64,000 nucleotides of DNA from Bacteroidales bacterium. Lineage in GTDB: Bacteria; Bacteroidota; Bacteroidia; Bacteroidales; UBA1715. Positions within the stretch are counted from its first letter, which is position 1. Each line of letters starts with the position of its first letter. The stretch spans positions 99,428 to 163,427 of the forward strand of contig JAZLFM010000010.1 in the NCBI GenBank assembly GCA_045615765.1, in the 5' to 3' direction. The notes under the pieces are model-generated. The model was not told where the DNA came from. It did not search any database and worked only from the letters and a program-made list of their open reading frames with translations. The translations under genes were made by a program, and so were the position numbers. Of the stretch, positions 8,598-55,600 are shown one piece after another.

Positions 8598-8617
8598 TGA
8601 ATGTAAATAATACGACT

Positions 8618-25837: not shown

Positions 25838-26335
25838 TTACTTCTTTACAAAATACAATTCATACGAAGAAAGCGGATCTGTTCTAAACTTTGAAGAATA
25901 ATTACCCCAATAGAGAGTATCGTTTTGCAAAAACAAACACGCTTTTCCCGCTTCACATAAAATAAAATCATTATAAGCAACAACTGTATCTCCCAATACA
26001 CTATAAGCACAGCGCTTAATAGTAGAGCCATCTACAACATACGTCTCATAAACTTCGTCTTCAGTAAAATTATAATAAGAACTATATTTGAATTCAGAAT
26101 TATTATAATCATCGAATCCATTTTTACATTCAAGGAACCAGTCTGTTCCTATAATTTGTTGTTGTATTTCAGAAATCTTTTGGACAGCATATTCATCTAA
26201 CAATTGATCATTTTCTTGTTCATTAGGTTGCCCTACTAATTGATTTTCCACTCCACTAGGTTTTGGTTCATCATCTTTATTGCAGGCACACAGTACTAAC
26301 ATACTTGCCGCAAGAAATAAAAAGATTTTCTTCAT
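25838..26335 (-). CDS. Small lipoprotein, function unknown
   Basis: 165 aa. MKKIFLFLAASMLVLCACNKDD is a lipobox signal peptide. No recognisable family. Confidence 0.6.
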   Translation of the reverse strand: MKKIFLFLAASMLVLCACNKDDEPKPSGVENQLVGQPNEQENDQLLDEYAVQKISEIQQQIIGTDWFLECKNGFDDYNNSEFKYSSYYNFTEDEVYETYVVDGSTIKRCAYSVLGDTVVAYNDFILCEAGKACLFLQNDTLYWGNYSSKFRTDPLSSYELYFVKK

Positions 26336-26367
26336 AATTATTTGATTTATAGACTACTTCGCAAAGT

Positions 26368-26379
26368 AAAAAAAAAAAA
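26368..26379. repeat. A12 homopolymer in the divergent intergenic region
   Basis: Twelve consecutive A residues counted at 26368-26379. The tract lies 33-44 nt upstream of the lipoprotein ATG (26335). Confidence 0.9.
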
Positions 26380-26469
26380 TAAATAAACAAATAAAAAACA
26401 GTTTTTTTCAAGAATTTCACATTCGTCGCACTTGAAAAATAAGACATTTTGCATTTATCAGAATTTGTT

Positions 26470-26477
26470 TACATTTG
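26470..26477 (+). promoter_or_regulatory. -7 box TACATTTG driving the leader/uORF upstream of the TonB-dependent receptor
   Basis: Exact TAnnTTTG match 18 nt upstream of the ATG at 26496. The track's TTG start (26475) lies inside the motif. Confidence 0.45.
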
Positions 26478-26495
26478 CCGCATCAAAAAATTACG

Positions 26496-26897
26496 ATGAA
26501 GAAAACCTTCCGATATAAAAAACAGACTTTCCGTTTCCATCGTTGGAATCGTGCGAATTACTCTGCATTTATGAGTATCGGAAAACAAATCACTATTGGT
26601 CGTGTAAACACTGAAGTTGCCGATGGTCTTCTTCGCGACCAACATATTAAAGAAATTTTCACTTCAATATATTTAGACAGTTCATCATCTGATGACGATT
26701 CTTCGGGCGGAGAAGAAAATTGCTTACTTGCTCTTTTAGAACAAACTCTTCTTTGCTCAACACAAACGACTACAGAAGTATGTCCTGCTTCTTGTAGCGT
26801 ATCATATTATGTTAACCCTAATCCTATCCGCTGGTGGCCACAGTCGATAGGATTTTTTATTTTTAAATCTTATGAAAAAAATCAATTTGCTGTGTAG
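26496..26897 (+). CDS. Questionable 133-codon ORF in the leader of the TonB-dependent receptor (uORF, gene remnant or non-coding)
   Basis: Begins MKKTFRYKKQTFRFHRWNRANYSAFMSIGKQITIGRV and then becomes D/S-rich low complexity. It reads through a terminator-like hairpin and overlaps the receptor start in another frame. Only the promoter spacing supports translation. Confidence 0.3.
   Translation: MKKTFRYKKQTFRFHRWNRANYSAFMSIGKQITIGRVNTEVADGLLRDQHIKEIFTSIYLDSSSSDDDSSGGEENCLLALLEQTLLCSTQTTTEVCPASCSVSYYVNPNPIRWWPQSIGFFIFKSYEKNQFAV
26820..26865 (+). terminator. Terminator-like hairpin plus U-tract just upstream of the receptor ATG (candidate attenuator)
   Basis: The 9-bp stem is AATCCTATC (26820-26828) / GATAGGATT (26846-26854), with a further 4 bp inside the loop. 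It is followed by TTTTTTATTTTT. The receptor ATG is at 26872. Confidence 0.45.
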
Positions 26898-30492: not shown

Positions 30493-31761
30493 TTAATCTG
30501 CCAAAACATTTCTATAATACGCACGAACATCATTCCATTTATAATATGGAGCAATGTCACTCTGCAACGGAAGATCAACCTCACGCTCATTTAATAAAAC
30601 TTTCACCAAAATTTCGTCAGATTTCGGTGATTTATAAAATATCATCTGAAAGTTTCCTGCCATTGGAATAATCATATAATCTCTCCAAACATCGCTCAAC
30701 TTTTCCAAATCTGTAACCTGAGCATTGCAACCTTCCAACTGCATTAAACTACATAAAGGCAACAAACCAGTATCGTGACCAAAACGCAAATTCGCACATA
30801 CACCAGTTTTTTTCGACAAAGCCATATCAGCATCGTCTAAAATACCTTGTAAAATAGTTTTTCCAAACAAAACACCTTGATTATTTGTCAACGGACAGGT
30901 ACCATAAGAACCATACCACCAAGCATTCTGCACAACCCAGTTCCCATACAATTCCTCATCTGTGAAAACATCGTCGAAGTCTATATTCAAAGAGTCCATT
31001 CCCTGAATACTACAATGTATTTCATAAAATCTTCGCATAAAAGAACTTGCGTCGATATTTTCATTTACATAAACAGAGTCTTTAAACAAAGCTGTAATCA
31101 TACGCTGTGGTTTCACATATTTTTCACATAAAGCGCCATACGATTTTTGCCACTCATCTTTCGATTGATACGCTGCAACTTTATCCCAAGCATCAACTAC
31201 AATCGATGGCATTATTTTTTTACTACACTCTGTTCTAAATTCCAAATTCGGACTTAACGAAGCCAATTCCGTACAGAAAGCTGACATACTCACAATACAT
31301 CGTGGAGATGTAGAAACCTTTACAGCAACAACAGAAGCATTTTTCTTATTACCAAATATTTCTGGAAAATTGGACACCATTCGTGCTGCTATTCCCTTAT
31401 GTTGTTTCTGACCCAACAATGTTAAATCACCGGCACGTAAATCTGCATACACCTGTAATTTATATATTCGTTCTGCCACCGACTTTCCTAATTCCGTCAA
31501 TACATTAGCAGAATCTGCTTTGTGAAACAAATTAGAGAAATAACTATATTCACTTTGATTCCAATGGAAACGCGATCCATGTCTTCCATAATGACTCATA
31601 TAAACAGGTTTATATCCTTTAGGAGCAGGAGTATATTTTTCATTCGGATTCTCGTACGCCAAATAATTGCTACACATCTGATTACGAGTTGGTCGTGCTG
31701 TTTGTGAAAGACAAACAACAGACAAACACATTGTAAGAACTACAAATAAAAATTTCTTCAT
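30493..31761 (-). CDS. Secreted histidine acid phosphatase (MINPP/phytase-like branch-2 histidine phosphatase)
   Basis: 422 aa with a signal peptide. It has the RHG motif (SHYGRHGSRFH) and a downstream HD motif (RFGHDTG). Confidence 0.7.
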   Translation of the reverse strand: MKKFLFVVLTMCLSVVCLSQTARPTRNQMCSNYLAYENPNEKYTPAPKGYKPVYMSHYGRHGSRFHWNQSEYSYFSNLFHKADSANVLTELGKSVAERIYKLQVYADLRAGDLTLLGQKQHKGIAARMVSNFPEIFGNKKNASVVAVKVSTSPRCIVSMSAFCTELASLSPNLEFRTECSKKIMPSIVVDAWDKVAAYQSKDEWQKSYGALCEKYVKPQRMITALFKDSVYVNENIDASSFMRRFYEIHCSIQGMDSLNIDFDDVFTDEELYGNWVVQNAWWYGSYGTCPLTNNQGVLFGKTILQGILDDADMALSKKTGVCANLRFGHDTGLLPLCSLMQLEGCNAQVTDLEKLSDVWRDYMIIPMAGNFQMIFYKSPKSDEILVKVLLNEREVDLPLQSDIAPYYKWNDVRAYYRNVLAD

Positions 31762-34548: not shown

Positions 34549-34935
34549 TTATTTTGTAAACTCTCGTCGGAGATAGCAGCCTTGAGTATTTCCATCAAGC
34601 AACTCCACACGATTCAATTTTAACTTACGACTATTTACTTTCTCTACACGCCACACACCATTCATTGTAGAGCCTTGAATACGCACATATCGAGTAACGA
34701 TTGATCTTGTAAAGACCTCGTATGAACAAACTTGAACACTATCTGCTTTCCCGAACAAAATATCGTTTGAAATTTCCAACTTGCCCCCAGAATAGAAAGT
34801 CCATTTTGCATCATCCGACCATCCACAGTCACCTACATCTTCAACTTTCCACTCTCCTATCAAACGAGTTTCGGTAGATTTTGAGCAACTAACAAATATT
34901 ATTGCAACAAAAAAAATGTATAAAAATTTTTTCAT
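34549..34935 (-). CDS. Small lipocalin-like lipoprotein (paralog 1)
   Basis: The ATG at 34935 gives MKKFLYIFFVAIIFVSCSK. The product shares GEWKVEDVGDCGW...WTFYSGG and a C-terminal LRREF with the neighbouring paralog. Confidence 0.65.
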   Translation of the reverse strand: MKKFLYIFFVAIIFVSCSKSTETRLIGEWKVEDVGDCGWSDDAKWTFYSGGKLEISNDILFGKADSVQVCSYEVFTRSIVTRYVRIQGSTMNGVWRVEKVNSRKLKLNRVELLDGNTQGCYLRREFTK

Positions 34936-34954
34936 AGGCACACTATATTTCCAA

Positions 34955-34962
34955 CAAATATA
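34955..34962 (-). promoter_or_regulatory. -7 box (TATATTTG on the minus strand) for lipocalin-like paralog 1 / radA
   Basis: The plus strand reads caaatata, 20 nt upstream of the ATG at 34935. Confidence 0.45.
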
Positions 34963-35018
34963 GAAAACTATCTCCTTTTAACAAAGAGAATGAATGTATT
35001 TATAACCGAAAAGAAAAA

Positions 35019-35420
35019 TTAATATTTCTGAAATTCACGGCGAAGGAAAGCACCATCTCGAGAACCATCCAAAAACGATTCACGAGTTAAGATAAGCGTG
35101 CTGCGTTTATGTTTATCAATTCTCCAGTTACCTTGAAACCAACCATAATCAGACCTAATACGAACATAATTACGCCATTTTCCATGGAATGTTTCCCATG
35201 AGCCAACGACGGTTGAATCAGGTTTTGCATTAACATCATTTAATAAAACAACATCCCCATTAGAATAAAATGTCCACGTTGTTACATCAGGCCATCCACA
35301 ATCGCCAACAGTCACAACTGTCCATTCCCCAACCAATCGTGATTCTTCAATTTTAGCACAACCAACAAGCCCTGCTAAAAATACCATCACGGTAAATAGT
35401 GTTACAATTTGCTTTTTCAT
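35019..35420 (-). CDS. Small lipocalin-like lipoprotein (paralog 2)
   Basis: 133 aa with lipobox LAGLVGCAK. It contains GEWTVVTVGDCGWPDVTTWTFYSNG and ends in FLRREF. It overlaps the upstream TonB-like gene by 4 nt. Confidence 0.65.
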   Translation of the reverse strand: MKKQIVTLFTVMVFLAGLVGCAKIEESRLVGEWTVVTVGDCGWPDVTTWTFYSNGDVVLLNDVNAKPDSTVVGSWETFHGKWRNYVRIRSDYGWFQGNWRIDKHKRSTLILTRESFLDGSRDGAFLRREFQKY

Positions 35421-36193
35421 TTCTTTGAAGTAGTGTATTCGTATGTAATTTTTGCGTATCGCGTTGTTCTTTCATCTGGTTGGAAAGTAGTTTTTTTCGC
35501 TGCTTCTTTTGCCGCATTTATACAAGCTTGTTCTGTCAATGCAGTTTCAACAGATTGTATAGAAGTTACTATTCCAGCCGAATTTACAACAACTGTAAGA
35601 ACTATAGGATTATTACAATTTGATGTATTACTTGGTTTCACCAAATTCACAGCATCACCATTTCCGTAAGGACTACCTGGATTTCCTTTTTTATTTTTTG
35701 ATTCTGTACCATTTGGATTTCCCGCACGTCCAGTAGAAGCACCAGTATTCGAATTTCCTTCCGTTCCTACGCCATTTTGTCCGCCACCACCCGACAATTT
35801 ACCGGTAAGTGCATCCATTTTTTGTTTAAATTCGTTTTCTTGACGAATTCTTTCCTGTTCTTCAGGAGATAACTCTGGTTGTTTGGGAGTCTCTACCTTC
35901 GTATTGTTCTTCTTTACCGAAATTGAAGGGACTTCTGTTTGAGTAACATACGAATCGTCGTTTGATTGAGGCTGAGCTGGCGTAGAAGGATTAGATGCCG
36001 TTGCATCTATCGGTGTTCCTGCATCATCGCCCACAACTAATTCACCAAAATCCACAACAATACCATCTGGTTCCGGAAACTCTAATGGTGGAGCAGAAAA
36101 GCCAAATAGCAAAAGAATTATTAGCACAATACCATGAACAAGTAATGTACCAATAATTCCATACTTTCTATCTCCAACAAATAGTTCTTTCAT
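35417..36193 (-). CDS. TonB/TolA-like energy-transducer protein (third gene of the exbB-exbD set)
   Basis: 258 aa with an N-terminal TM anchor, a long Pro/Gln/Gly-rich linker and a short C-terminal domain. Its position is directly after exbB and exbD. Confidence 0.65.
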   Translation of the reverse strand: MKELFVGDRKYGIIGTLLVHGIVLIILLLFGFSAPPLEFPEPDGIVVDFGELVVGDDAGTPIDATASNPSTPAQPQSNDDSYVTQTEVPSISVKKNNTKVETPKQPELSPEEQERIRQENEFKQKMDALTGKLSGGGGQNGVGTEGNSNTGASTGRAGNPNGTESKNKKGNPGSPYGNGDAVNLVKPSNTSNCNNPIVLTVVVNSAGIVTSIQSVETALTEQACINAAKEAAKKTTFQPDERTTRYAKITYEYTTSKK

Positions 36194-38681: not shown

Positions 38682-39851
38682 TTACCTGATTTCTTTTTTT
38701 GATAATAAATAATTATACCCCACACAAACACCTCTTACCACCATAATTGAAAGTAATAGATACGCCAAACTAGGAATAAATTGTCCTACACTTAGTGAAA
38801 CTACCACAGAAAGAACTGCCATAACAGATGAAAACACAACATACCATTTCACACGATTGCGTATTGATGGCAGCAGCAAGAGAACTGCAAAAATCAAATG
38901 AAATGGAGTCAGCCATATTGTATTACAATTCGGGAACACAAACGAATGAATACTTACAAACGACAAGAACCACAAGACACATCCTACAATACCCAAAATT
39001 AGTAACAACGATGCGTCAAGCCATACAAACCACTTCTTTTTAATGATTTCCACTACAGTCAATATCAATACTAACAGAAACAAACAAACCAATGGCAGAA
39101 CAGCCTCACCCCAATTTGTATCAGTACCTTCGGAAGCACCTTCCACGAGAACTTGTGGAACACCACAAAGTTTACGTCCATCACTTCGGGTTGTTGTTTC
39201 GCATACAGAAGCAATAGCGTCTGGTAAGAACAGTAGTTCTTCTTTTGTTGCCAAGGCATCTGTTTGCACACCTAAAGCAAGATGAATTCCTAAACTTGAC
39301 CATGATGTCTGCCCAACATAGCGTAAAATCGCAGAACGCCAACTTTCTTCATTATACGATGCGTTCCAAGATAAAGTATCTATTTGAGCAGACAATATAT
39401 CCCGCAAACGAGTCGCACAGTTATCATAAAAGAAGTTATACAAATACAATCTATTTTCAGGTAACATATTCTTCATCACAAAGTTACAGATGCCGAGCTT
39501 TTCCTCCGGTTCTAATATCAAGGGATATTCCACTATACCTCTACCTTCCATCTCATACGATAGTGTTGTATATCGGAAATTCTTAGCATCGAGCATATAG
39601 TATGTTTTTCCCGTGAAGAAATTGCCAACAAACTGAAATAAGTCTTCTATAGTAAATGTTCCATAGTCAAAAACAAAATCGAAATCTTGTTTTTCATCGC
39701 AGATTCTCAATGCAGCATGACCAAATTTTGCATACAAGTCTTCCCCTGGTGAGCAAACCAATATAGACACCCGTGTATCGTCTGTTGGGGCAAACGAATA
39801 TGATCGAATGCCAAAAGACAAAAGCACTATGAGGAACAATAGTTTTTTCAT
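38682..39851 (-). CDS. DUF4105-like protein with a C-terminal multi-TM region
   Basis: The ATG at 39851 (MKKLLFLIVLL) overlaps the pgeF stop (ATGA). The N-terminal domain contains DLYAKFGHAALRI, typical of DUF4105 as I remember it. About five TM helices lie at the C-terminus. Confidence 0.55.
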   Translation of the reverse strand: MKKLLFLIVLLSFGIRSYSFAPTDDTRVSILVCSPGEDLYAKFGHAALRICDEKQDFDFVFDYGTFTIEDLFQFVGNFFTGKTYYMLDAKNFRYTTLSYEMEGRGIVEYPLILEPEEKLGICNFVMKNMLPENRLYLYNFFYDNCATRLRDILSAQIDTLSWNASYNEESWRSAILRYVGQTSWSSLGIHLALGVQTDALATKEELLFLPDAIASVCETTTRSDGRKLCGVPQVLVEGASEGTDTNWGEAVLPLVCLFLLVLILTVVEIIKKKWFVWLDASLLLILGIVGCVLWFLSFVSIHSFVFPNCNTIWLTPFHLIFAVLLLLPSIRNRVKWYVVFSSVMAVLSVVVSLSVGQFIPSLAYLLLSIMVVRGVCVGYNYLLSKKEIR

Positions 39852-40582
39852 TTCTTTAATCCTATATATGAGCACATTCGTCCTGTTTGACCATCACGAC
39901 GATATGAATAAAACAAATCCACATTCGAATAAGTATCCAATTTCGAATTAAAAATAGTTCCAACATTACAGTCACGCAAAATTGTTTCCACGCAACAATT
40001 CAGGTCAAAATAATATGACCCATTTCTTGAAATGAAATACTGTTTTGGAAAATAGTCGAGGAACTCTTTACCGACTTGGTAGTTTTCCTGTTGAATCATT
40101 GGACCAATATACGCTGTCAACGAGCGAGGATCAGAGAACTCTGAAAGAATCTTCACCATATTCTGAATAATTCCATCTCGAGTACCTTTCCATCCACAAT
40201 GTAAACCTGCGACAAGAGAAAATGCTTCATCATGAAACAAAACTGAACCACAATCGGCAATGGATACAGAAAGAACAACTCCTTTCTCTGTTGTGTAAAA
40301 GCCATCTGCTTCCGTATCATTACAAAAAGAAGAATCAACACGAACAACATCAGCAGAATGTATCTGTTTTAGATTTGCAACTTGAAAATTTGGAGCAACA
40401 GCATCGAAAAACAAGCGGCGATTTTGTTTTACATTTTCGGCATCATCTTTAGAATGCAAACCTGTATTCATACTTTCATACACTCCAGAACTCACCCCGC
40501 CCTTTCGCGTTGAGAATCCTGCGATACACTTGTCGTTATCGAGCCACAAACCATGTGGAATTGGAGTTTCTGTAGTTTGCAT
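39848..40582 (-). CDS. pgeF: Peptidoglycan editing factor PgeF (YfiH/DUF152 family)
   Basis: Family motifs QIHSADVVRV, SIADCGSVLF and LHCGWKGT. The ATG at 40582 (MQTTETPIPHGLW) is 18 nt downstream of a -7 box. The longer track ORF (to 40711) would overlap the gmhA promoter and start. Confidence 0.85.
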   Translation of the reverse strand: MQTTETPIPHGLWLDNDKCIAGFSTRKGGVSSGVYESMNTGLHSKDDAENVKQNRRLFFDAVAPNFQVANLKQIHSADVVRVDSSFCNDTEADGFYTTEKGVVLSVSIADCGSVLFHDEAFSLVAGLHCGWKGTRDGIIQNMVKILSEFSDPRSLTAYIGPMIQQENYQVGKEFLDYFPKQYFISRNGSYYFDLNCCVETILRDCNVGTIFNSKLDTYSNVDLFYSYRRDGQTGRMCSYIGLKK

Positions 40583-40673: not shown

Positions 40674-41255
40674 ATGAAACAAGAAATCCAAGATACTATT
40701 CGTCGTTCCATTGATGTAAAAACTGCATTACTAAACGATGAATTTGCTATTTCACAAATAGAAACGGTTGCAAAGAAAATGATTGAATCCTACAAACAAG
40801 GACACAAAACAATGTTTGCAGGAAATGGAGGAAGTGCCGCCGACGCGCAACATTTAGCTGCAGAATTAGTTAACCGTTTTCGTTTCGACCACCTTGGACT
40901 TCCAGCATTAGCACTCACAACCGACACATCTATCGTAACAGCAATTGGCAACGATTACGGATACGATTTCTTGTTTACTCGTCAAATTGCTGCACTAGGG
41001 AACAATGGCGATGTATTTATTGGCATTTCTACCTCTGGGAATTCCGAAAACATTGTAAAAGCATTACAATATTGCAAGGAGAAAGGAATATATACAGTTG
41101 GGCTTACAGGTGGCAATGGAGGAAAAATGAAAGCATTATGTGACGAATGTATCGTCGTGCCATCAAACGAGACTGCACGTATTCAAGAATCACATATTTT
41201 AATTGGTCATATTCTTTGTGGCTTTGTTGAATCTGCAATGTTCGAAAAAAAATAA
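40674..41255 (+). CDS. gmhA: D-sedoheptulose 7-phosphate isomerase (SIS domain)
   Basis: MFAGNGGSAADAQHLAAELVNRF and ISTSGNSENIV are typical GmhA motifs. The product is about 193 aa from the ATG at 40674. Confidence 0.88.
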   Translation: MKQEIQDTIRRSIDVKTALLNDEFAISQIETVAKKMIESYKQGHKTMFAGNGGSAADAQHLAAELVNRFRFDHLGLPALALTTDTSIVTAIGNDYGYDFLFTRQIAALGNNGDVFIGISTSGNSENIVKALQYCKEKGIYTVGLTGGNGGKMKALCDECIVVPSNETARIQESHILIGHILCGFVESAMFEKK

Positions 41256-41258
41256 ACT

Positions 41259-41642
41259 ATGGAACATCTCTATATTGAACAATCGGCATGGACACCAGAA
41301 GTTTTCTTCAATATCGACGAAAACAAACTTTGCTTAGTAGGGCGATCTTTTCCTGAAGATGCAGCTACTTTCTACACACCAATTGTTGCATGGTTGGAAA
41401 ATAACATTCAAGAATTCGCTAATGGATTCACCCTAGAGATTAAGTTAGAATATTTCAACACTTCTTCTTCAAAATATCTGCTTAAAATGTTTCGGTTTCT
41501 TGAAAAGTACAAACAAAACCATACGATTCCCGTACAAGTAACATGGAAATATTTCTCTAATGATGAAGAAATGAAAGAATCCGGAATGGAATACCAACAA
41601 TTTGTTGATGTACCATTTGAATTTATTGAAATTGAAAAATAA
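41259..41642 (+). CDS. DUF1987 / SiaC-like regulatory phosphoprotein (copy A)
   Basis: 127 aa starting 3 nt after the gmhA stop. TPEVFFN...LCLVGRSFPEDAATFYTPIVAWL...LEYFNTSSSKYL matches the DUF1987 pattern. Thr68 lies in the NTSS motif. Confidence 0.75.
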   Translation: MEHLYIEQSAWTPEVFFNIDENKLCLVGRSFPEDAATFYTPIVAWLENNIQEFANGFTLEIKLEYFNTSSSKYLLKMFRFLEKYKQNHTIPVQVTWKYFSNDEEMKESGMEYQQFVDVPFEFIEIEK

Positions 41643-41700: not shown

Positions 41701-42711
41701 TTACTTTTTCTTAAACGAAATTGTTATTGGTAAATGGTCGCTATAGCCACCATGGTACATTTCGCCCTGATACGTTCTATACGGAGCAGCTTCACCTGTT
41801 TTCTCGTTTCGTTCTAACAAACCTTCATGTTGAACAACAACATAATCAATTTCATAATCTTTTAGAAAACCTTGGCTAACAATTCCTTGATCCAAGAAGT
41901 TCCAATAACCTTTGTATTTATAAGTACCATCTGCATTTTTATCTTGTAGATTTACAAGACATTGCGGGCAATCGTCAACAGTTCTACGTGCTTTCAATCC
42001 TTTGGTAATACTTTTCTCTGTAGGATAATCATTAAAATCACCTGTGATTACAATATTTGCATCAGGATTGTCAGATAAAATTTTATCAACCACAGTTCTT
42101 AACTGACGAGCAACCGTAATACGATATTGTTCGCTCTCATCCTTTCCACCACGACGAGACGGGAAATGACAAATAAAAATATGGATTGTATCGTTTGTGG
42201 AAAGCATACAACCTTCTACATACAAAATATCGCGTGTTTTTCTTGATGCATCAGCAAAAACAGGTCGGATTATCGTATCACGCAACGGCTTAAATGTATT
42301 TTTATTATATAAAAGAGCCACATCTATTCCTCTGGTATCTAAAGATTCATGATGGATAAAATCATAGTGGAATCTATACAAATCTGTTTTTTGAATAAGA
42401 TCACGAAGACAAGTATCGTTTTCTACTTCGCAAAAACCTATGACATCAGGCATTTGCCATCCACCTGCCAAAGCAATTACTTGAGCTATATTTTTCAATT
42501 TTTTATTATATCGATACGAATTCCATTGTCGATGCGAATTTGGCAAAAATTCATTATCGTTGACTCGAGGATTATCAACCGTATCAAATAAATTTTCGGT
42601 GTTATAAAACATCACCATAAAATCTCGTTCTTTTTGTCCAGAACAGCTACAAGACAAAAACACACAAAACAAGACAAAGAAGATATTACTTATCGCTTTT
42701 CTTTTCTTCAT
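41701..42711 (-). CDS. Endonuclease/exonuclease/phosphatase (EEP) family lipoprotein
   Basis: 336 aa with lipobox FLSCSCSG. EEP motifs are MFYNTENLFD, VITGDFNDYP and GYSDHLPITISF. Confidence 0.8.
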   Translation of the reverse strand: MKKRKAISNIFFVLFCVFLSCSCSGQKERDFMVMFYNTENLFDTVDNPRVNDNEFLPNSHRQWNSYRYNKKLKNIAQVIALAGGWQMPDVIGFCEVENDTCLRDLIQKTDLYRFHYDFIHHESLDTRGIDVALLYNKNTFKPLRDTIIRPVFADASRKTRDILYVEGCMLSTNDTIHIFICHFPSRRGGKDESEQYRITVARQLRTVVDKILSDNPDANIVITGDFNDYPTEKSITKGLKARRTVDDCPQCLVNLQDKNADGTYKYKGYWNFLDQGIVSQGFLKDYEIDYVVVQHEGLLERNEKTGEAAPYRTYQGEMYHGGYSDHLPITISFKKK

Positions 42712-44243: not shown

Positions 44244-45365
44244 ATGGAGCAAGAGAAAATTGAACAGCAAATTAACGAATTAACCCTCTTTGAAGGACTT
44301 CAAAGGGAAGATTTGGTATATGTGTACCGCGGTCTTTTCTCTCAAGTTATTACCGACAGTATCATTGCATTGACCGAAAATAATCTTGACTCCACAGGAG
44401 AATCAACAAAATTAAAAAAACGTGTATTCTCCATTATGGTTGAATGTCTACAAAATATTACTCGCCACCAATTCATCGATGGTCGTGAGGATCTTACAGC
44501 CGACCAATCCGGAATGTTTGTTATTTGTAACAAAGACAAGTCATATCAAATGACATCGGGCAATGTTGTAAATAAAGAAGCAATTCCACACCTAACAAAA
44601 TTATTAGAGAAAGTTAACAGCTTAGATAAAGATGCATTGAAACAATACTATAAGCAAGTATTGGAAGATGGAAGTATTTCTAGCAAAGGTGGAGCTGGTC
44701 TCGGTTTGATTGAGATGGCAAGGAAATCAGGGAATAAGTTGTTCTATACATTTGAAGAAATTGATGAACTTATTTCATATTTCTATATGAACACCTCAAT
44801 TTCACAACAACTTGACGAAGCACCTATTGACTTTATCGACATTCAAGATGTTGTAGCGCTACATAAATTTGTTCTTCAAAAAAACATTATGCTTATTTTC
44901 AATGGTGGACTAAACCAAAAAAGCTTAATGGACATTCTTTCGCTAATAAACGAACAAGCATTCGGCCGTTTAGAGCGAAAAAAGAAGATGTACAATGTAA
45001 TGGTAGAAATGCTACAAAACGTTGTAAAACACGGCGTTAAATGTGACGAAAGCAGACCTGGCGGTAACCCTGTGATTTTCTACATTGCTCAAAATGGAGA
45101 TGAATTTAGTCTTAACGCTGGTAACTATATCGACAATGTATCAATAGAAAAAATCACAAGTAAAATTGATCATTTAAATTCTCTCAACGAGGAAGACCTT
45201 GATGACTATTACACAAAATGTCTTTTGAACTTTGACATCGATAATAGTAAAGAAGCTGGATTAGGATTGGTAGATTTGCGAATGAAAAGCGGACATCCAA
45301 TTCAATACACGCTTAAAAAGGTAAACGAAGAGATATCATTTATTTTAATGCAAGTAACTATATAA
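44244..45365 (+). CDS. SiaB-like (DUF6272-type) GHKL-fold protein kinase, internally duplicated
   Basis: 373 aa made of two homologous halves. SIMVECLQNITRH...GGAGLGLIEMARKSGNKLFYTFEEIDELISYFYMNTSI aligns with NVMVEMLQNVVKH...KEAGLGLVDLRMKSGHPIQYTLKKVNEEISFILMQVTI. A DUF1987 gene follows directly. Confidence 0.6.
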   Translation: MEQEKIEQQINELTLFEGLQREDLVYVYRGLFSQVITDSIIALTENNLDSTGESTKLKKRVFSIMVECLQNITRHQFIDGREDLTADQSGMFVICNKDKSYQMTSGNVVNKEAIPHLTKLLEKVNSLDKDALKQYYKQVLEDGSISSKGGAGLGLIEMARKSGNKLFYTFEEIDELISYFYMNTSISQQLDEAPIDFIDIQDVVALHKFVLQKNIMLIFNGGLNQKSLMDILSLINEQAFGRLERKKKMYNVMVEMLQNVVKHGVKCDESRPGGNPVIFYIAQNGDEFSLNAGNYIDNVSIEKITSKIDHLNSLNEEDLDDYYTKCLLNFDIDNSKEAGLGLVDLRMKSGHPIQYTLKKVNEEISFILMQVTI

Positions 45366-45366
45366 T

Positions 45367-45744
45367 ATGGAATCCTTACACATAATTGCAACAGAAGAAA
45401 CTCCAGAAATTCACTTAGACGCAGAAAACAACACATTTTCTATCTCTGGACGATCATTACCCGAAGATTCCATATCATTCTATGAACCTGTATTCAAATG
45501 GTTACAAGAATTCAGCGAAGTTGCCGAAAACGATATTGAATTTGAATTCTTTATGGAATATTACAATACTTCGTCTGCTAAGCAATTAGCCAAAGTTTTT
45601 CTTCTGCTTGAAAAAATGAGCGACAAAGTATTTGTTCAAATAGTATGGAAATACAAGAAAAGCGATCCAGACATGATGTCTTCAGGTATGCGTTTTTCTA
45701 AATTATTAAGTCTTGAATTTGAACTAAGAGAAGTTGACTGCTAA
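45367..45744 (+). CDS. DUF1987 / SiaC-like regulatory phosphoprotein (copy B)
   Basis: 125 aa starting 1 nt after the upstream stop. TPEIHLD...FSISGRSLPEDSISFYEPVFKWL...MEYYNTSSAKQL matches the family pattern, with Thr68 in the NTSS motif. Confidence 0.75.
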   Translation: MESLHIIATEETPEIHLDAENNTFSISGRSLPEDSISFYEPVFKWLQEFSEVAENDIEFEFFMEYYNTSSAKQLAKVFLLLEKMSDKVFVQIVWKYKKSDPDMMSSGMRFSKLLSLEFELREVDC

Positions 45745-45836: not shown

Positions 45837-46475
45837 TCACCTCAAATTCTCAAACTTTTGATAGCGTGACACACTAAAAACCGAAGGATCAATCTTATGC
45901 GGTTTTACTTCAACATTAGAGAGCACTGATTTAGGCGATCTAAGCAATGTTCTATTTTCAACAAGGAATGGAATCACACCATCTGTTTTAGCAGCAGGAA
46001 GAGCCTTAAAAAACAGAAAAACATCATCGATAGAGATAGCCACATTCGACATCGAGGAATAAAACTTAAAATTATCACCAGCAATCCAATAAGACATCTC
46101 AGTATTTCTCTCTATGTTCCTAACACGCCACTGGTCACACTTATATCCGTTTATATATTTATAATTCCCTGTATTTATAACCTCAAAGCCAGCAAGGTCA
46201 TTATTCTCGCTAGTATACTCTATTGCTGTATAGATATTTTTATTAGGATTTATAACATACAAAGACTTCTCCTGAGTATTTACGACATACGAACGAAGTG
46301 CACGTCTATACTTGTCAAACTCATCAATACGGACATTATTATTTTTAACAGTATAAACATAAAACAAGGTATCGGAATGAGTCACTTTCATATAACTAAT
46401 CTCCCCCTCAAATGGTTGAGAAAACGAAAAGAAACTAACAAGTGAAAAGAAAAGAAAAAGACAAAAGTTTCTCAT
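45837..46475 (-). CDS. Secreted hypothetical protein (possibly DUF4412-like)
   Basis: 212 aa with signal peptide MRNFCLFLFFSLVSFFSFSQ. The family guess is from memory only. Confidence 0.5.
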   Translation of the reverse strand: MRNFCLFLFFSLVSFFSFSQPFEGEISYMKVTHSDTLFYVYTVKNNNVRIDEFDKYRRALRSYVVNTQEKSLYVINPNKNIYTAIEYTSENNDLAGFEVINTGNYKYINGYKCDQWRVRNIERNTEMSYWIAGDNFKFYSSMSNVAISIDDVFLFFKALPAAKTDGVIPFLVENRTLLRSPKSVLSNVEVKPHKIDPSVFSVSRYQKFENLR

Positions 46476-46640: not shown

Positions 46641-49600
46641 TTACTTTACGAATCCCTTAACAACTGAACCGTTTTCAGTTTCTACAATTACCTTGTAAAC
46701 ACCTTGAGCGAAACCAGTTGCATCAATTTCGATTTCATCAGCTGAAGCTTGTTCGAATGCTACAACCTTACCTGTTGCAGATACAATCTTAACAGCTACT
46801 AAGTTTTCTGCTGCAACAGTAACATTTGTTGTTACCATTGTTGGATAAACTTTCGCATCGATAACAGTTACATCATCAATTGCTGTTTCTTCTGGTCTGT
46901 CAACATCAATGTCAGCACCCATTGCTTTAATTGCATCATACAACCATCTTGCTGCATCATCTACTTCTTCTTGAGTTGCAAATGGTTCATCGTAAACATC
47001 TTGAGCATTCAACCAAGCGTTTTGGAAGTCATTGTAAACAAGTGGTGATTTTTCACCTTTACCACGTCCGATTACGATTTCACCAGCTTGAACTTTGTAG
47101 TAAACTGCATATGCACCCCATTTTTCATTTTCAATCAATTGATTCAAGAATGCTTTATCAGCTTTCACTGGAGTAACAGTTACTGTAATAGTTTGTGAAA
47201 CACCATCAGCTGGAGCAGTTACTGTTACAATTGCAGTTCCTTCTGCAAGAGAAGTAATATTACCTTCACCATCAACAGAGATGATTGAATTATCGTTTAC
47301 TTCATAGATCAAATTCTTATATGTTGCATTTGAAGGAGCAATTGTTGCTTTAATCTTAGCAGATTGTCCTAATTCTAATTCAACATTTGAAACTGTAATT
47401 GATTGAACTGGAATTGAGGCAACAGTAATGTAGATACTGTTAGAAACACCAGAACCGTCTTTTGCAGTTGCAGTAATTTGAACCATACCAGCACCCTTAG
47501 CTGTTACATAACCTGTTTCAGAAACAGTAGCAATTGAAGGATCATTTGAACTCCAAGTCACAGTTTTGTCTGTTGCAGTTGCTTCACCTGCTACAGCAGA
47601 TAATTGAGCTACATCACCAACATTCAACATTTGTGTACCTGAAATTGTAATGTTCTTAACTTTTTCAATTACAGTAACAGTAATATCTGTAGATATACTT
47701 GGATTAGAAGCAGATCTAATTGTCAAAGTAGCAGTTCCACCTTGGTTACCAATAATTGTGAATGAACCATCACCATTATCAGTGTAAGAGAAGCAGCTTG
47801 TACTAGCAAACAATGTATAATCTGTTTGAGTAGTATTAGCAGGGCTATAAGAGATAGTTACTGTACTACCTTTAGTATCGCCTGCAGTTACTTCTACTTT
47901 ACTAATTGAAGCAGTGATATTAGATACTTCGATTGTTTCTTCAACAATTGTTACTTCACATTCATTAGATTCAACACCTTCAGCATCAGCTGCAGTTGCT
48001 ACTACTACGAATGATTGACCAGCCTTACCAGTTACTGTTACTTTACCAGTAGAAGCATTGATTGTTGCACCAGAACCGATAACAGCCCAAGTTACAGTCT
48101 TATCATCTGCATTTGCTGGCAATACTGTAGCAGAGAATGTGTAAGTACTATTTTCTTCTAATGACAATGTTTTTGGTATTGAGATAGAAGAAACATAAGT
48201 AGGATCTTTTAACAATTTAATTGTCGTTGAAGCAGTAACTTTCTTACCATCTAACGAAGTAATTGTAGCAGTAATTCTAATGTTTTCACGATTTTGTGAA
48301 GTTGTCTTACCACTTACGATACCTGTTTCAGGATCAACAGTTACATAAGAACTAGCTGTTGACCATACAACAGATGCAATTGAAGCATCATCTGGTTCGA
48401 ATGTCAAGAATTCTGACAAATCTAATGTTCCTGATTCAGCAACAGTGTATTCACCTAAAGCGATTGTTGCAGAAGAAACTGGAACTATTTGTTTTGTAAC
48501 ATTTACTGTACAAGTTGTTGAAATACCAGCAGTGTAAGCTGATTCAACAGTAATTGTAGCAGTACCAGGAGCAACAGCAGTTAGAACACCATTTGCATCT
48601 ACAGTTACAACACTTTCATCAGAAGAAGACCATACAAGACCTTTATTGTCAACACCTTCAGTTGGAAGGATTGTAACAGTAAATTTATTGTAAGTATCAC
48701 CTTGAACCATACCTACTGTTGAAACATTCAACTTAACTGAAGTTACAGCAGGATCTGAACAATCTTTTACTTCGAATGTAACATCTGTAGCATTACCAGC
48801 ACAACCATTAACATCAGTATAAGAGTATGCTACTGTGTGTGTGCCTTCGCTCAAAGAACTTGGAACGAAAGAAGTAGCAGCCTTACCATCAAGTTTGAAA
48901 TCACCACCAGCAGGAGTTGCCGACAATGCAACTTCAACTACAGAACTTGAACAGAATTCTTCTGCTATAGCAATTACTGGAGTAGGAAGAGCACTAACTG
49001 TCAATGTAGCAGTAGTTGCTTCAGAAGTACAACCATCAACTGTTTGAGTAACAGTATAAGCATAATCTTTAGCAGTTGTTACGCTAACAGCTTGTGTAGC
49101 AGCAGTTCCAAGAGGAGAACCTGCAGCATCGAACCATTGTAAACCAGCACCTGTTGCAGACAATACATATTTAGATTCTTCACCTAAACATGCAGTAGCA
49201 GAAGTTGCCACTGGAGCAGCAGGAGTTTCTTTAACTGTGTAAACAACTTCAGCGAAATCAGATGCACAACCTGCAACAACTTGATTTACATAATATGTTG
49301 TTGTTGCGCTAATTGATTTTGGAGTAAATGACTTGCTGTCAGTTGCAAGAGCAGCAGCAGCTTTATCAGCATACCAATTTGCAGATTCTACTGTTGTCAT
49401 AGCAACCAATTCTGAACCAGCACAAGAACTTGCACCAGTTGCAGTTGGAGCAGCAGGTTTTGCTTTCACTGTAACAACTACAGAAGCACGAGCACTTTCA
49501 CAAGTTGTTTCTTGAGAAGCATAATATGTACCAGCAGTAGTTACATCGAATGTTGTACCTTCAGCAAGTGCAGTACCTTCTTCACTTACATTGTACCATT

Positions 49601-52600
49601 TAATGTTAGTACCTGTTGCTGATAATGTAGCAGTTTCACCTTCACAGATTTCATCAACTGCAGCAATTGTAGGAGCAGGAACTGTACAATCAGTTACTGT
49701 AACAGTTACAGGAACCTTAGCACTTTCACAAGATCCGTCTGTATTAGTTACATAATATGTATAAGTTGCTTTAGCATCTGTTGTAATTGCAGGTGTATAA
49801 GTTGCACCTGTAGCTACAGAAGCACCAGCCTCTGATTCGTACCAGTTAATAGTACCTTTACCTGTTGCAGAAAGAGCAGGAGCAGCATCACCTAAACCAA
49901 CGATAGCCGAAGTAGCTGTTGGAGCAGTAGCTTTTGTTACTGTAATAGTAACATTATCAGTTGCAGAGCAACCATTAGCTGTTTCTGAATAAGCTAATTC
50001 ATAACTTCCAGCAGTTTCAGATTTGAATGTTGAACCTTCAACACCAGTACCACTCCAAGTACCTGTAGCTGGAGCTAACGTAATTTCTTCACCAGCACAA
50101 GCTGTTGTTGCAATAGCACTCAAATCAATAGAAGGAGCTGCCTTCACAGTGATTGTTTTTGTAATTTCTGATTGGCAACCTGGATCACCAATTGTATAAG
50201 TGATAGTTGCAGTACCTGCACCCGCAGTCTTAGGACTGAATGTTGAACCAGTTACACCTGTACCAGACCAAGAACCTGTTGCAGGAGTTGCAGAAAGGGC
50301 GACTGTTTCAACTGAAGAGCAGTATTCAGATTCAACTGTTGAAGCTATGATTGCAGTTGGTTTAGCTGTGATTGTTGCTTTTACAGCTGTACGAGTTTCA
50401 CTTTCACAACCATCGTTTTTAGCAACATAGTAAGTATATTCACCTGCTTTAGTATCACTAGTTGTAAATGAATTACCTTCTTTAAGAGCAACGCCACCTT
50501 CAGCAGCAGAATACCATACTGCAGTTGCTGTACCTGTAAATGTTGCAGTAAGAACTACAGGGTCACCTTCACAAACTGTTACTGCAGGAACTTGAGCAGC
50601 TGTTGGAGCAGTTGTTTTACATGCACCAGCAGAAATTGTAACAGTTACTGGAGTACGTTCACTTTCGCAGTTTTTCGCATCTTTTCTAGCAACATAATAT
50701 GTATATGTACCTTCCTCTAATTGACCAAGAGCAGTTGCTATTGGAGAGCCACCTGTTGCAGCTGCATACCATACAGCAGTACCACTTGTTAATTTAGCAG
50801 ATAGAGTAACATTATCATCAGCTGTAGCTTTGATTGCAGGAGCCTCAGCAGCTGTAGGAGCAGCAACAGCTGTTACAGTTACTTTTACTGGAGTGCGAGG
50901 ACTTTCGCAAATACCATCATTGTTTGCAACATAATATGTGTATTCACCTGCAGCTTTTTGACCAATCTTAGCAGAAGCTAATGGAGTACCAGCAGTTGCA
51001 ACATCATACCATACAGCAGTACCACTTGCAGTTGCTGTTAAAGTAATATCATCGCAAGGAGTTGCAGTAATATCTTTTGCAGTTGGAGCAACAGCAGTAC
51101 AAGGAGCATCACCATTCTTAACAGTAATTGTAGCAGTTACTGTTGGATCATCTTTTGCAGTTACAGTAATTACAGCAACACCTTCACCACCATTAAAGAT
51201 TACATCAAAAGCATATACGCTTGTTTTTTGTACTGATTGTTTTGATACAGGACCAACCGAAGCGACATCTGTATTCGAAGAAGCAACAGTTACACCTGTG
51301 AAGGCAAAATTTGAAGGTTGGAATGTAACACCAAAAGTAACATAATTTGCATCTTCGTCTTCTGGATCCAACCAGTTATAGTCTTCATCATCAACAACAT
51401 CCATCAAAACCGTAGAAGTTGCATCAGCTTTTTGAATTGCTCCATCACCACCAAATAAAGCGATAGAATTCAAACCAGCTTCTTTTACAGTAATATCAAA
51501 TGAGCCTACTGCATAATCACCACAACCTTTTGTTTTTGCAGTTGCCGTAATTGTTGTTGTACCTAAAGCAACAGCCTTTACAAGACCAATAGAAGAAACT
51601 GTGGCAACTGAAGTATTACTTGATTTCCAAGTAAATTCTGTTGTTGCACCTTCAGGAAGAGCAATTGCAGTCAATGTTTGAGTTTCTGAAGGAGACATTT
51701 TTTCTACACCAGTAATTTCAACTTCAGCAGGAACAAGAACAGAAGATACAGATAAAGTAGCTTTTACAGTTGGATCAGCATCAGAAGTAATAGTAATTGT
51801 ACCTGTACCAGCAGCTTTACCTTCAAGAGAGATTACTGCTGTTTTTTCATCATATGTAACAGTTACAATATCACTTGCACCAGAGAATGACAATGCTTTA
51901 TTTGGATAACGAGCCTCATCAAATGTAACCGCTACTGTAGTAGGTTCACATCCAACTTTAACTTGAGCTGCATCTACATCCAACGAAATTGAATTCAATT
52001 CATAAGAAGCAGGAGTTATTGTAATCAATGGAGAAGGACCAGCCATTTCTTGGCCATCAGCACTTACAATATATATATAATATGTAGTTGCTGTATCTAT
52101 AGCTAATTCTTCTGTTTCTAATTGTGCAAGTCCATACAAATTAGAAGATAAACTTAACACAGCTTTTGATGCAACTGTCTTAATTCTTACAGACTCATCA
52201 GAAGGAACTAGGTAAACTTTTGCTTCACGAGTTGCTGTAACCTTAATTACATCACCAAGTGTGTATTCAGCTGCATCAACTTTGAAATCTAAGGCTACTT
52301 GATTTATTTCAAAACATGAAGCAGGAACTTTTTCTGAATAGTTACCACTACCATCTGCAGCAACTAAATAGAACTGATCACCTGGTTTTATCACTTTACC
52401 TTCATATAGAGCTTCAAAGTTAAATGTTACTGGTTGACCACCTTCTACCATCCACATATAAGGAGAATCATCGATATCTGTTTTTGCAGCAGAGCAAGGC
52501 ATCAAGTAAACAGTAGCATCTTCGTTTACAGTGAAGAATAATGTACCGTCAGCATCGATGTAGTCTTCATTAAAATATTCTGTGAATTCAGGAGGAGTTA

Positions 52601-55600
52601 CGTCCTTAACTTGGCAACCATAAGCTGAAGACACAGAACCTGAAACAGGATCGTATGCATACGCTTTAAAGTAACCATAACCCATACCCATCATATCGAT
52701 TGTAGCAGGAGTATTAGCAGTACAAGCTGTATATGTACCTTCACCAGCATTTACAGCAGCCATCATTGCTGAATATTGAGGATTTACTGTTCCTCTAACA
52801 ACAAAGATGTAACCATCAGCTGAACTTGTAACTTTAAACTTAGAGTCTTCATCTATACCAACTTTAGTATTCAAAACTTCAGCTGGAGAGAAATCAGACA
52901 AGTACAATGGTTGACCTACTGAAATGTAGTCAAAATGTAATGTTCCATTATACAATGTAGGAACATAATCATTCTTATCTGTACCTTCAGCTTTTATGAA
53001 ACGGAATTGAATTTCAGAGATAGCAGTAGGATCTACACCAGAGAAACTTGGATTATAAGTAATCTTAGTTGGAGTAGAGCTTACTGTTAGTCTCGTGAAA
53101 GAACCGTCTTTAGAATTTCCAAAATAATCTTTTACATCTATACGATAATAAACAGTTGCTCTTGCATCTGAAGTAACAGAAAATTCAATCACACCACGAT
53201 CTCCACTTAAGTCAAGAACAAAGCCTTCATTTGTTGATGCAGAATATGGAGCTAAAATAATTTGAGATCCCCATGAGTCACCAGCAGCTTGTGTAAAATC
53301 CAATGTTCCTGCTTTTGCATTTTCAATGATACTATATGCAATATCATCATCAAAACTACCTAAATTCAAGTTTTCTGTTACATAATCTGTAGCATCAGCA
53401 AAGTCATCATACCAACCTGTAGAAGTTGTACAGCCAACAAGATTTGCTAACTCTACAGAGAATGGTGCAGATTTACGACCATCGTTAGATTTAACATCGC
53501 TTGTTTCTGCTGCCAATGTTGCAGTAATTGTTGCAGAAGCAGATTTAATTGGAGTTTCAAGATTGAAAATCAATGTAGAAGCATCACCTGTTTTTGTTTC
53601 TATAGATGTAACAGCATGAGAAGTTGCGCCTTCTTTAATAACTATAGCCGACAAACTTGTAGGAAGTTTCATTGCTGTTGAGAAGTTCAATTCCACTTGC
53701 GAACCATCAAAAGCAACTTTTCCTGACTCAGCTTCAACAACTTGTTTCTTTGGACATAATGCAAATTCATCGATATAAATTTCGAATGCTACATCAGCTT
53801 GTTCACTTGTTGAAGAAGCTTTAAATGGAGCAATCCAAATTTTATTGTATTTATTCTGTTCTGAATATGCTTGCCATGACCATGCTGCTGTTGTTCCAAG
53901 AGGAATATCAAATTCATACCACTTACCTACTGTAATATCTTCAAGCAAGAAAGCAGCATTTTTAGGACTGTAATCTGGAGTATTTAAATCTTCTGTCATC
54001 AAGAAGATAGCCATACCATCAGCACCAGCACCAAGAGATTTCAAATAGAATCTACCTGTCAAACGAGAGTTTGGATCAGCTAAGTTTGTATTCCATTCAG
54101 CTTTATTAGCTGTGTTTGGTGTAAATATCAAACGTTGATAATCACCAGGAGTTTTAAGATACATAGCCTTACCATCAGTCGCGCTAGCAAAATCTGTTTC
54201 CATTGGGATATTAGATACCATACAGTCCCAAGTTCCTGTTTCTACTCCCCCTGTAACATACATTTCCAAACAAGATTCACTCATGTAGAAATTTTGTACA
54301 ACAGCTTTAGTAAATGCTTTTGCTTTCTTAGTTCCTGTTAATGAAGTCAAACCACCTGCATACGAAATAGTAATTGCATCTGCAGAAGAAGACAATAAAG
54401 ATTCACCAAAATCTAATGCCAATACTGTTTTATCTTGTACACCTTCATCATCTGTAAAATAAGAAAGTTTTGGTGTTTTAGAAACTGCTGTTCCATTTAC
54501 ATATACAGTAAAGTCTGAAGCAGCAGCAGATGCTAACTTCACATCTTTAGACCATTGTACATATACTTTTGCACCAATAACATCAGTGTAACGAGCAATT
54601 GGATATGGTTCCATGCTTGTTACTTTATTTGTTACTTGTTGGTCTTCGAAAGTAGATGCTTTTGAACCATCAGTACCTGTTAAAGTTGTTCCTGTATATG
54701 ATACATATATATAAGGATCTGCAATATCAGAAGACAAATTCAATGTCACATCCTTAGACATAACGGAAGCAGAAGAAACAGAGATTTTTGTACCGTTTGT
54801 CTTATTTTTTGCATCATCAGCAGTAGGATATGTAGTAACAACAAATTTGCTTATTGAACTAGTTGCAGAAGCCGCATTGATTGGTTTTGAGAAATTAACA
54901 ATTACAGAACTTCCTGATGCATCAGTTTCCGAACTTAAATATACAGGAAGCATATCGTAGAAGTTAGGCATGTTACCTGTCAAGCACAACATGAACAACA
55001 ACTGAGTTGTATGAGTATAATATGCACCATACACATCAGTTGCAGAACCGTTAGACCAACAAGCATTCATATAGCTTTTATAAGTTGGATCAACCATAGA
55101 ACCGATACTCAAACCAGCTTTGAAACAAGCATTTTTACTTGATCCCCAAGAAGAAAGAGAACCTTTGAATGCACCTGTCCCATCACCCGGACGACCATCA
55201 AGGAAGTAACCATCTAAGATATCACCAGGATTAGGATATGCTTTTTGCGCCCATGAAGTGATTTTTGAAGCAAGTGCCTTTGCACGAGTGTCGCCATACC
55301 ATGCATACGCATGAGCAAGACGCCAAGGAATACGAACAGCATCGTAACCAAAGATAGATTCGAATTTAGAATCTACAATACCTGTCAAATAAGAACCATT
55401 TTCATAACACCAGTCAGGAATCAAACCTGTAGTTGCATTAGCAGATTTTTCCATAATAGTGTAACAGTTATTTGCAACAGTAGTAAAGTCCCAAGAAGCA
55501 CCTAAACTTTCAAGAGCATTTACTTGATCAAACAACTTCATTGCATTTGTAATGAAATAGCAAGGGTTTTTGTAATCATCAAAGTAATCACCTGGTTTTA

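Follow-up and report, generated by a model that had tools for sequence, protein, structure and literature searches.

The 64-kb stretch of Bacteroidales chromosome analyzed here (contig JAZLFM010000010.1, positions 99,428 to 163,427; hereafter the window) carries a two-gene module in which a kinase made of two SiaB-type domains is followed by a SiaC/DUF1987 protein, SiaC1. The same two families are part of SiaABCD of Pseudomonas aeruginosa, in which the SiaB kinase and the DUF1987 phosphoprotein SiaC work together with a PP2C phosphatase, SiaA, and a diguanylate cyclase, SiaD. We consider it probable that the kinase of the window acts as a pseudo-dimer that phosphorylates SiaC at Thr68, that remote sensor-PP2C phosphatases reverse this modification, and that unphosphorylated SiaC acts on a target other than a cyclase. 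This proposal builds on observed features, namely the domain identities, the internal duplication of the kinase, the conservation of its motifs and of Thr68, the linkage or fusion of kinase and SiaC, the enrichment of PP2C genes around the kinase and the absence of GGDEF genes. The module consists of the following elements (aa, amino acids; nt, nucleotides):

44244–45365, plus strand: tandem SiaB-family kinase, 373 aa, two DUF6272/GHKL-like domains in one chain
44244–44813, plus strand: kinase N half, about residues 1–190
44814–45362, plus strand: kinase C half, about residues 191–373
44442–44444 and 45006–45008: predicted catalytic Glu residues of the kinase, E67 and E255
45363–45365: kinase stop codon TAA, then a lone T at 45366 and the SiaC1 ATG at 45367
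45367–45744, plus strand: SiaC1, SiaC/DUF1987 phosphoprotein, 125 aa, Thr68 codon at 45568–45570, ATG 1 nt past the kinase stop

A first-pass annotation made from the letters of the window had described the 373-aa open reading frame (ORF) as two homologous halves with two motif boxes each, i.e., a covalent pseudo-dimer of a GHKL-type kinase, followed after 1 nt by a 125-aa DUF1987 protein. The observation is borne out. The halves are 30% identical over 129 aa (E 2e-22) and the Pfam model for DUF6272 (PF19788) matches the protein in two stretches (E 2e-70, 235 bits against a cut-off of 26.6), as does the NCBIfam model NF038262 (SiaB_fam_kinase; 248 bits against a cut-off of 85). SiaB of P. aeruginosa (PaSiaB) shares 27 and 24% identity with the two halves. 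Both boxes are present in each half: the N half has VECLQNITRH and GGAGLGLI, the C half VEMLQNVVKH and EAGLGLV. An AlphaFold2 model based on an alignment of homologues reaches a mean predicted local distance difference test score (pLDDT) of 81 and a predicted template modeling score (pTM) of 0.81 for the whole chain, and the placement of the two domains relative to each other is therefore confidently predicted. One order of secondary-structure elements occurs twice in this model. Its best Foldseek matches in the PDB are the SiaB chains of the SiaB-SiaC complex (6KKO_A, target-normalized TM score 0.85, root-mean-square deviation 2.7 Å), with the anti-sigma kinases SpoIIAB, RsbW and UsfX as runners-up.

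PaSiaB and SiaC of P. aeruginosa (PaSiaC) form a 2:2 complex (PMC7647112), and a crystal structure has defined the residues of the SiaB dimer interface (PMC7278518). Since PaSiaB acts as a dimer in this complex and the predicted structure of the tandem kinase matches the SiaB fold, the reading of the tandem as a covalent pseudo-dimer of SiaB-type domains is well founded at the level of the model. An alignment of 89 homologues shows no variation at E67/Q70/N71/H75 and G149-L155 of the N half, or at E255/Q258/N259/H263 and G339-L340-G341 of the C half. When both halves were aligned with six single-domain SiaBs, PaSiaB among them, all residues invariant in the latter (the Glu, Gln-Asn, Gly-Asn and Leu-Gly) turned out to be kept by both halves, including the counterpart of Glu61, the predicted catalytic residue of PaSiaB (PMC7647112). 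By alignment, neither half has thus lost the residues with which such a kinase would be expected to bind ATP/Mg and carry out catalysis.

In a tree of the kinase halves, all N halves form one clade and all C halves another, which places the duplication before the spread of the tandem-kinase family. The C halves evolve somewhat faster (mean distance 0.47 vs. 0.40 for the N halves) and have changed consistently at two sites, from GGAGLGL to KEAGLGL and from A159 to R346. These changes would fit an asymmetric pseudo-dimer, in which the N domain is the sole active kinase and the C domain is a non-catalytic docking or regulatory element, comparable to a pseudokinase-kinase pair, to which SiaC, another SiaC paralog or some different partner would bind. 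The smaller number of invariant columns in the C half points the same way, as do a phmmer search against PDB sequences that reaches PaSiaB from the N half only and the natural fusions described below, in which SiaC is tethered to the C half by a linker of ~6–8 residues. However, none of the invariant residues of the single-domain SiaBs is missing from the C half, and these residues are also invariant across the 89 homologues, which would be unexpected for a dead site. We regard this asymmetric arrangement as an unlikely, though tangible, possibility, and retain the pseudo-dimer with two SiaB-type domains as the basis for what follows.

SiaC1 is not the only SiaC protein of the window. A paralog, overlooked by the first-pass annotation, lies upstream of the kinase:

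41259–41642, plus strand: SiaC2, SiaC/DUF1987 paralog, 127 aa, Thr68 codon at 41460–41462, begins 3 nt past gmhA

Both proteins score well above the cut-off (24.5) of the Pfam SiaC model PF09345, SiaC1 with 111 bits (E 3e-32) and SiaC2 with 120 bits (E 6e-35), and they are 37% identical to each other (E 3e-30). As the kinase likewise exceeds its family cut-offs, the family membership that the first-pass annotation had proposed for kinase and SiaC1 is confirmed by hidden Markov models (HMMs). The scores against the stricter NCBIfam equivalogs are lower: 131.7 bits for the kinase against 225 for SiaB proper (NF038264), the kinase being a two-domain tandem and not a single-domain homodimer, and 69.4 and 73.7 bits for SiaC1 and SiaC2 against 150 for SiaC proper (NF038265). 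Because they fall below these equivalog cut-offs, the kinase and the SiaCs of the window are classified, by sequence score, as family members and not as orthologues of the Pseudomonas proteins.

The alignment of SiaC1 with PaSiaC (6KKO_C) is gapless to residue 85. Thr68 of SiaC1, which the first-pass annotation had counted within Y-x-N-T-S-S (here Y-Y-N-T-S-S), therefore corresponds to the Thr68 that is phosphorylated in PaSiaC, and Thr68 of SiaC2 pairs with the same residue in a region without gaps. Position 68 is Thr or Ser in 118 of 119 SiaC homologues, fused ones included, within the motif Y-x-N-T-[SA]-S-x-K. In PaSiaC, the stalk of SiaD is gripped by D79, R103, E110 and D114 (PMC8457831). 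The corresponding residues are L/D/R/L in SiaC1 and R/E/E/F in SiaC2, with E110 kept only in the latter, while the Y65/N67/T68/S69 core is intact in both. This residue pattern fits a conserved interface with kinase and phosphatase combined with a different target.

The tandem kinase is widespread. A word-index search retrieved 1786 homologues, the best 120 of which all measure 356–398 aa and share at least 47% identity with the window protein; several of these 120 bear the NCBI name 'SiaB family protein kinase'. In a scan of one genome per GTDB species, at least 554 stretches encode a relative of the kinase. Eighty of these loci were kept, nearly all from metagenome-assembled genomes (MAGs) of Bacteroidales or Bacteroidia from gut, rumen, sediment and groundwater, some of them with two or three copies. 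For the analysis of gene neighborhoods, ORFs were called and clustered in 82 loci, i.e., these 80 species representatives and two close relatives. SiaC is the only neighbor found family-wide, on the same strand and directly after the kinase in ~62 of 81 loci; two consecutive SiaC genes occur in three loci, and in 30 of 79 loci the operon comprises the kinase with or without SiaC and nothing else. In a further 12 loci the three domains are joined in a SiaB-SiaB-SiaC triple fusion, a single ORF of 503–518 aa with two DUF6272 domains and a SiaC domain, as confirmed by Pfam for locus L056, with a kinase-SiaC linker of the length given above. Fusions of this kind are strong evidence that kinase and SiaC are directly linked in function.

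The window holds no SiaA-type or SiaD-type gene, and the module could in principle be a decaying, functionless remnant of a SiaABCD-like operon that has lost its phosphatase and cyclase genes. The kinase and SiaC1 ORFs are intact, however, with motifs that are invariant across the 89 homologues, relatives of the kinase persist in the large number of species representatives just mentioned, and independent fusions and paralog expansion indicate selection, not decay. A remnant is therefore hardly credible.

Second to SiaC, the recurrent partners of the kinase are PP2C/SpoIIE phosphatases, with 50 ORFs within 10 kb of the kinase in 31 of 81 loci. One to three of these genes are found per locus, with two or three in many of the loci, mostly convergent and starting directly past SiaC, and the sensor domains of their products vary (TPR, PAS, Reg_prop/Y_Y_Y, solute-binding, and Fe-hydrogenase-like with PAS). 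An HMM built from the PP2Cs of the kinase loci detected none in 80 control loci (0/80 vs. 31/81, Fisher p 2.5e-11), which were centered on TsaD, cover 0.88 Mb and are mutually syntenic. The first-pass annotation had spoken of a switch with no visible phosphatase; this stands for the 64-kb window but not for the system. Because of its frequency in the related loci and its absence from the controls, we count a SiaA-type phosphatase arm as part of the family; its gene in this genome most likely lies at another site. Two genes of the window with other phosphatase-related domains were considered and rejected as the missing enzyme: the Exo_endo_phos_3 protein (41701–42711) does not belong to a protein Ser/Thr phosphatase family and bears a lipoprotein signal, and the family of the His_Phos_2 protein (30493–31761) is not one of protein Ser/Thr phosphatases either.

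Some loci show further arrangements of the same families. On the contigs of L071 (3982–7957) and L074 (564–4685), a single-domain SiaB (191 aa), a SiaC (128 aa) and a PAS-SpoIIE protein (938 aa) are encoded on one strand as a SiaABC-like operon without SiaD, and a triple fusion lies a few kb away, so that several architectures coexist within one genome. In seven loci (L035, L038, L056, L062, L071, L073, and L075), the next gene on the strand of the triple fusion encodes a ~660-aa protein (L056 9974–15615), of which the C-terminus alone matches Pfam, namely the ion-channel family Ion_trans_2. PPK1 often follows this gene, and a MORN-caspase and a papain-like protease with DUF4384 are often found upstream of the triple fusion. 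In that sub-clade, this channel-like protein might serve as the output. Other same-strand neighbors of the kinase (the FtsA/FtsZ cluster, DapF, DUF5698, and PPK1) are heterogeneous, clade-specific housekeeping genes and were dismissed as outputs in favor of clade-specific synteny.

A third SiaB-type gene, also overlooked by the first-pass annotation, is cut by the end of the window:

63760–64000, plus strand: divergent SiaB/RsbW-type kinase gene, 5' part (80 codons), runs off the 3' end

Its 80 visible residues contain an E-x-L-x-N-I-x-x-H box and match Pfam HATPase_c_2 (E 1.2e-5), with a further, weak match to DUF6272 (E 0.016). With this fragment as query, the word-index homologue search and a first metagenome scan were both empty; homologues were found by an exhaustive search of cluster representatives and a metagenome scan anchored on TsaD. 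In the nearest representative (P0156; 291 aa, 54% identity, E 8e-17), a SiaC domain comes after a DUF6272 domain. Three syntenic metagenome loci (L093, L095, and L096), with a TsaD 87% identical to that of the window, share the gene order TamB, TsaD, a SiaB-SiaC fusion of 290–291 aa and a free SiaC of 126 aa. As these relatives show both a fusion and a free SiaC, SiaB-type kinase domains probably number three in a region of ~24 kb here, and SiaC domains three to four. The first-pass annotation had allowed for a SiaA/SiaD pair just outside the window; on the 3' side, the relatives have more SiaB/SiaC genes instead, and no PP2C gene in the ~9 kb beyond the point that corresponds to the window's end. 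This genome has a broader set of SiaB/SiaC paralogs, in which the kinase-SiaC1 module is a single node.

No GGDEF gene was found in the window, by a Pfam scan of every ORF of at least 110 aa, a GGDEF probe or a GG[DE]EF regular expression in six frames, nor in any of the 82 loci. The observation of the first-pass annotation that no GGDEF protein is encoded in the 64 kb stands, and the missing link to an output in cyclic di-GMP (c-di-GMP) extends to the whole family. The module is not isolated, as SiaC2 with gmhA and the third SiaB-type gene lie in the same window. If not a cyclase, the output could also run through the kinase, in an anti-sigma-like manner: the tandem kinase would sequester its target, a sigma factor or an enzyme, and unphosphorylated SiaC would compete for the kinase and release that target, being an antagonist only and not an effector. 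The ranking of SpoIIAB, RsbW and UsfX directly after SiaB among the structural matches, the second binding surface that a second kinase domain could offer and the match of the 3'-edge ORF to the RsbW-type family HATPase_c_2 are in line with this mechanism. Nevertheless, sigma-factor and STAS genes do not recur around the kinase in the 81 loci and are absent from the window, the output of the sole studied system, that of Pseudomonas, passes through SiaC and not through SiaB (PMC7278518), and free-standing orphan SiaC genes suit an effector role better. An anti-sigma-like output via the kinase is accordingly improbable, and we keep to an output that passes through SiaC.

A candidate for such an output is provided by the neighborhood of SiaC2, which forms a two-gene unit with gmhA:

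40674–41255, plus strand: gmhA, phosphoheptose isomerase (SIS_2), two-gene unit with SiaC2
39848–40582, minus strand: PgeF-like (Cu-oxidase_4) gene, divergent from gmhA-SiaC2

The likely true start of gmhA is the ATG at 40674 and not the TTG at 40653 of the ORF list, as gene calls in relatives have 192–193 aa; the pgeF start of the ORF list (40711) also seems too long, the relatives' gene calls being 244 aa. The gmhA product matches Pfam SIS_2 (E 1e-27) and scores slightly under the cut-offs of the NCBIfam GmhA models; it aligns over its full length with the solved GmhA of Burkholderia (2XBL, E 2e-64), and by this sequence match it is a genuine GmhA. GmhA catalyzes the first step in making heptose for the cell envelope. 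The orthologue group of SiaC2 spans 56–100% identity, and gmhA is followed by SiaC2 with a gap of 1–3 nt in all seven lineages inspected (the window, L001/L002, L083-85, L086-87, L088-89, L173-174, and L175), down to the 56% level. The divergent Cu-oxidase_4 gene is found upstream wherever that flank is available (not in L175), whereas the genes downstream vary by lineage. Only in the window and its nearest relatives is the tandem kinase close to the unit (2.6 kb). In the L083-85 lineage, a Reg_prop/Y_Y_Y-SpoIIE gene lies downstream of SiaC2 at a distance of 5.6 kb, and the gmhA-SiaC2 clade therefore does encode sensor-phosphatases of that type. In one other lineage, a ~1190-aa protein with Reg_prop/Y_Y_Y sensors fused to a class III nucleotidyl cyclase (Guanylate_cyc) and an HD domain is encoded ~6.7 kb upstream of gmhA-SiaC2 (L088/L089 1–1336, minus strand); its sensors have the same architecture as those of kinase-linked PP2C phosphatases in other loci.

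The authors of the SiaC-SiaD structure have proposed that DUF1987 proteins generally modulate the products of adjoining genes (PMC8457831), which makes GmhA the obvious candidate for a target of SiaC2. As an assignment from synteny, this is speculative. A still wider hypothesis would be that in gut and rumen Bacteroidales a network of multiple SiaC paralogs controls envelope biosynthesis and not c-di-GMP, with unphosphorylated SiaC2 binding GmhA and tuning the supply of heptose-phosphate for lipopolysaccharide (LPS) or surface glycans, and with the phosphorylation state set by the tandem kinase and remote sensor-PP2Cs. We offer this extension as a doubtful one, with the odds clearly against it.

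Taken together, we propose the following mechanism, in which the kinase activity, the choice of SiaC substrate, the acting phosphatase and the output are the parts that we infer. An ancient covalent fusion of two SiaB domains would replace the SiaB homodimer that binds two SiaCs in Pseudomonas. The resulting kinase would phosphorylate SiaC1 at Thr68, and the unlinked paralog SiaC2 may be a second substrate. As suggested by the related loci, the input would come from sensor-PP2C/SpoIIE phosphatases with TPR, PAS or Reg_prop/Y_Y_Y domains that dephosphorylate SiaC; here, the gene of such an enzyme would lie beyond the limits of the window. Unphosphorylated SiaC would then bind and modulate a protein other than a diguanylate cyclase, for which, in the case of SiaC2, the co-transcribed GmhA is the best available candidate.

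A number of points weigh against this mechanism. Nothing in the sequence assures that both kinase halves are equally active: a nearly invariant K-E stands for the GG of GGAGLGL in the C half, and its ATP-lid loop is modeled at low confidence. No PP2C gene was found in the window, either by the Pfam scan or by a six-frame search with a locally built PP2C HMM, and as the ~9 kb past its 3' end in relatives are equally devoid of one, the phosphatase arm is here deduced from related loci. The closer relatives of the kinase (56–96% identity, L001–L004) have no PP2C gene within 10 kb, so in the sub-clade of the window the phosphatase, if present, is unlinked. The GGDEF probe was a hand-written sequence; the independent regular expression was equally empty. 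The link to gmhA is synteny within one clade, and no gmhA lies near the tandem kinase in other lineages. Finally, a full-text literature search found no work, biochemistry included, on SiaB or SiaC of Bacteroidota; it returned nothing on DUF6272, and DUF1987 in the Pseudomonas structural paper alone.

The relation to known systems can be summarized as follows. Similar to SiaABCD, the window has a kinase of the same family and fold, SiaCs of the same family with the same Thr68 in an N-T-S motif and adjacent kinase and SiaC genes; at the family level only, it also shares the linkage to sensor-domain PP2C phosphatases. Unlike SiaABCD, the kinase is a covalent two-domain tandem in place of a homodimer, the proteins fall under the SiaB and SiaC equivalog cut-offs, a GGDEF partner is absent throughout and the SiaD-contact residues of SiaC are mostly replaced, no phosphatase is linked to the module within the window, and several SiaB and SiaC paralogs and their fusions are present. 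The proposed organization also resembles the partner switches RsbW/RsbV/RsbU and SpoIIAB/SpoIIAA/SpoIIE, with a GHKL-type Ser/Thr kinase, a small antagonist phosphorylated on a single Ser/Thr and an input through PP2C. Of these parts, kinase and antagonist are present in the window and the phosphatase is seen in relatives only. The kinase fold is related to that of RsbW and SpoIIAB by Foldseek, and SiaC is structurally related to STAS domains (PMC8457831). In contrast to those systems, the antagonist is a DUF1987 protein and not a canonical STAS protein, no sigma factor is associated, and the output is expected to run via the phosphoprotein and not via the release of a sigma factor. Further counterparts are the single-domain SiaB-SiaC pairs of Bacteroidota and related phyla (e.g., L090, L092, L012, and L071), which combine the same two families without a diguanylate cyclase and in L071 and L074 are directly followed on the same strand by a PAS-SpoIIE gene. 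Their kinase has one domain (~186–192 aa), whereas that of the window is duplicated.

The remainder of the window is densely coded Bacteroidales chromosome, with cargo of the type IX secretion system (T9SS), PorP/SprF, polA, glmS, ExbBD-TonB, TamB and TsaD. A scan for sigma-70 promoters and intrinsic terminators between 40.5 and 46.6 kb gave counts not above those of shuffled sequence, with a model ill-suited to Bacteroidota promoters. Past the kinase-SiaC1 operon lie a small convergent DUF4412 gene (45837–46475) and then, on the minus strand (46641–56204), the gene of a 3187-aa protein in which an N-terminal GH8 glycoside hydrolase domain is combined with numerous Ig_7 and Big_2 repeats and a C-terminal sorting domain of the T9SS. 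Genes for T9SS cargo are clustered at 3068–13558 (plus strand); among their products are a 1485-aa protein with DUF7948, PKD, SprB and CHU_C domains, encoded next to a PorP/SprF gene, and a secreted protein of 1316 aa that has CotH-kinase, lamin-tail and Por_Secre_tail domains. Several ORFs of 130–260 aa without a Pfam match are found at 34549–36193 (minus strand), 13675–14226 (plus strand) and 25838–26897; three of them sit between the ExbB/ExbD genes and radA.

In summary, the tandem kinase itself is common and not unique, and is already auto-annotated as 'SiaB family protein kinase'; what is new is functional and not the discovery of an architecture, as the family has been characterized experimentally in P. 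aeruginosa alone. There, the sole known role of SiaB/SiaC signaling is to turn a diguanylate cyclase on and off. The neighborhood survey, with SiaC as family-wide partner and PP2C/SpoIIE as the second, shows the same chemistry to be widespread in Bacteroidia, without linkage to GGDEF genes, often together with sensor-PP2Cs, and often with a kinase hard-wired as a two-domain chain or as a three-domain kinase-kinase-substrate chain. The family therefore appears to be a general-purpose switch. The natural fusions and the gmhA-SiaC2 pair provide concrete experimental entry points to the stoichiometry of the pseudo-dimer, the specificity of each half for the SiaC paralogs and the regulation of envelope heptose. 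If true, control of GmhA by SiaC2 would provide the SiaC family with its first non-cyclase effector.

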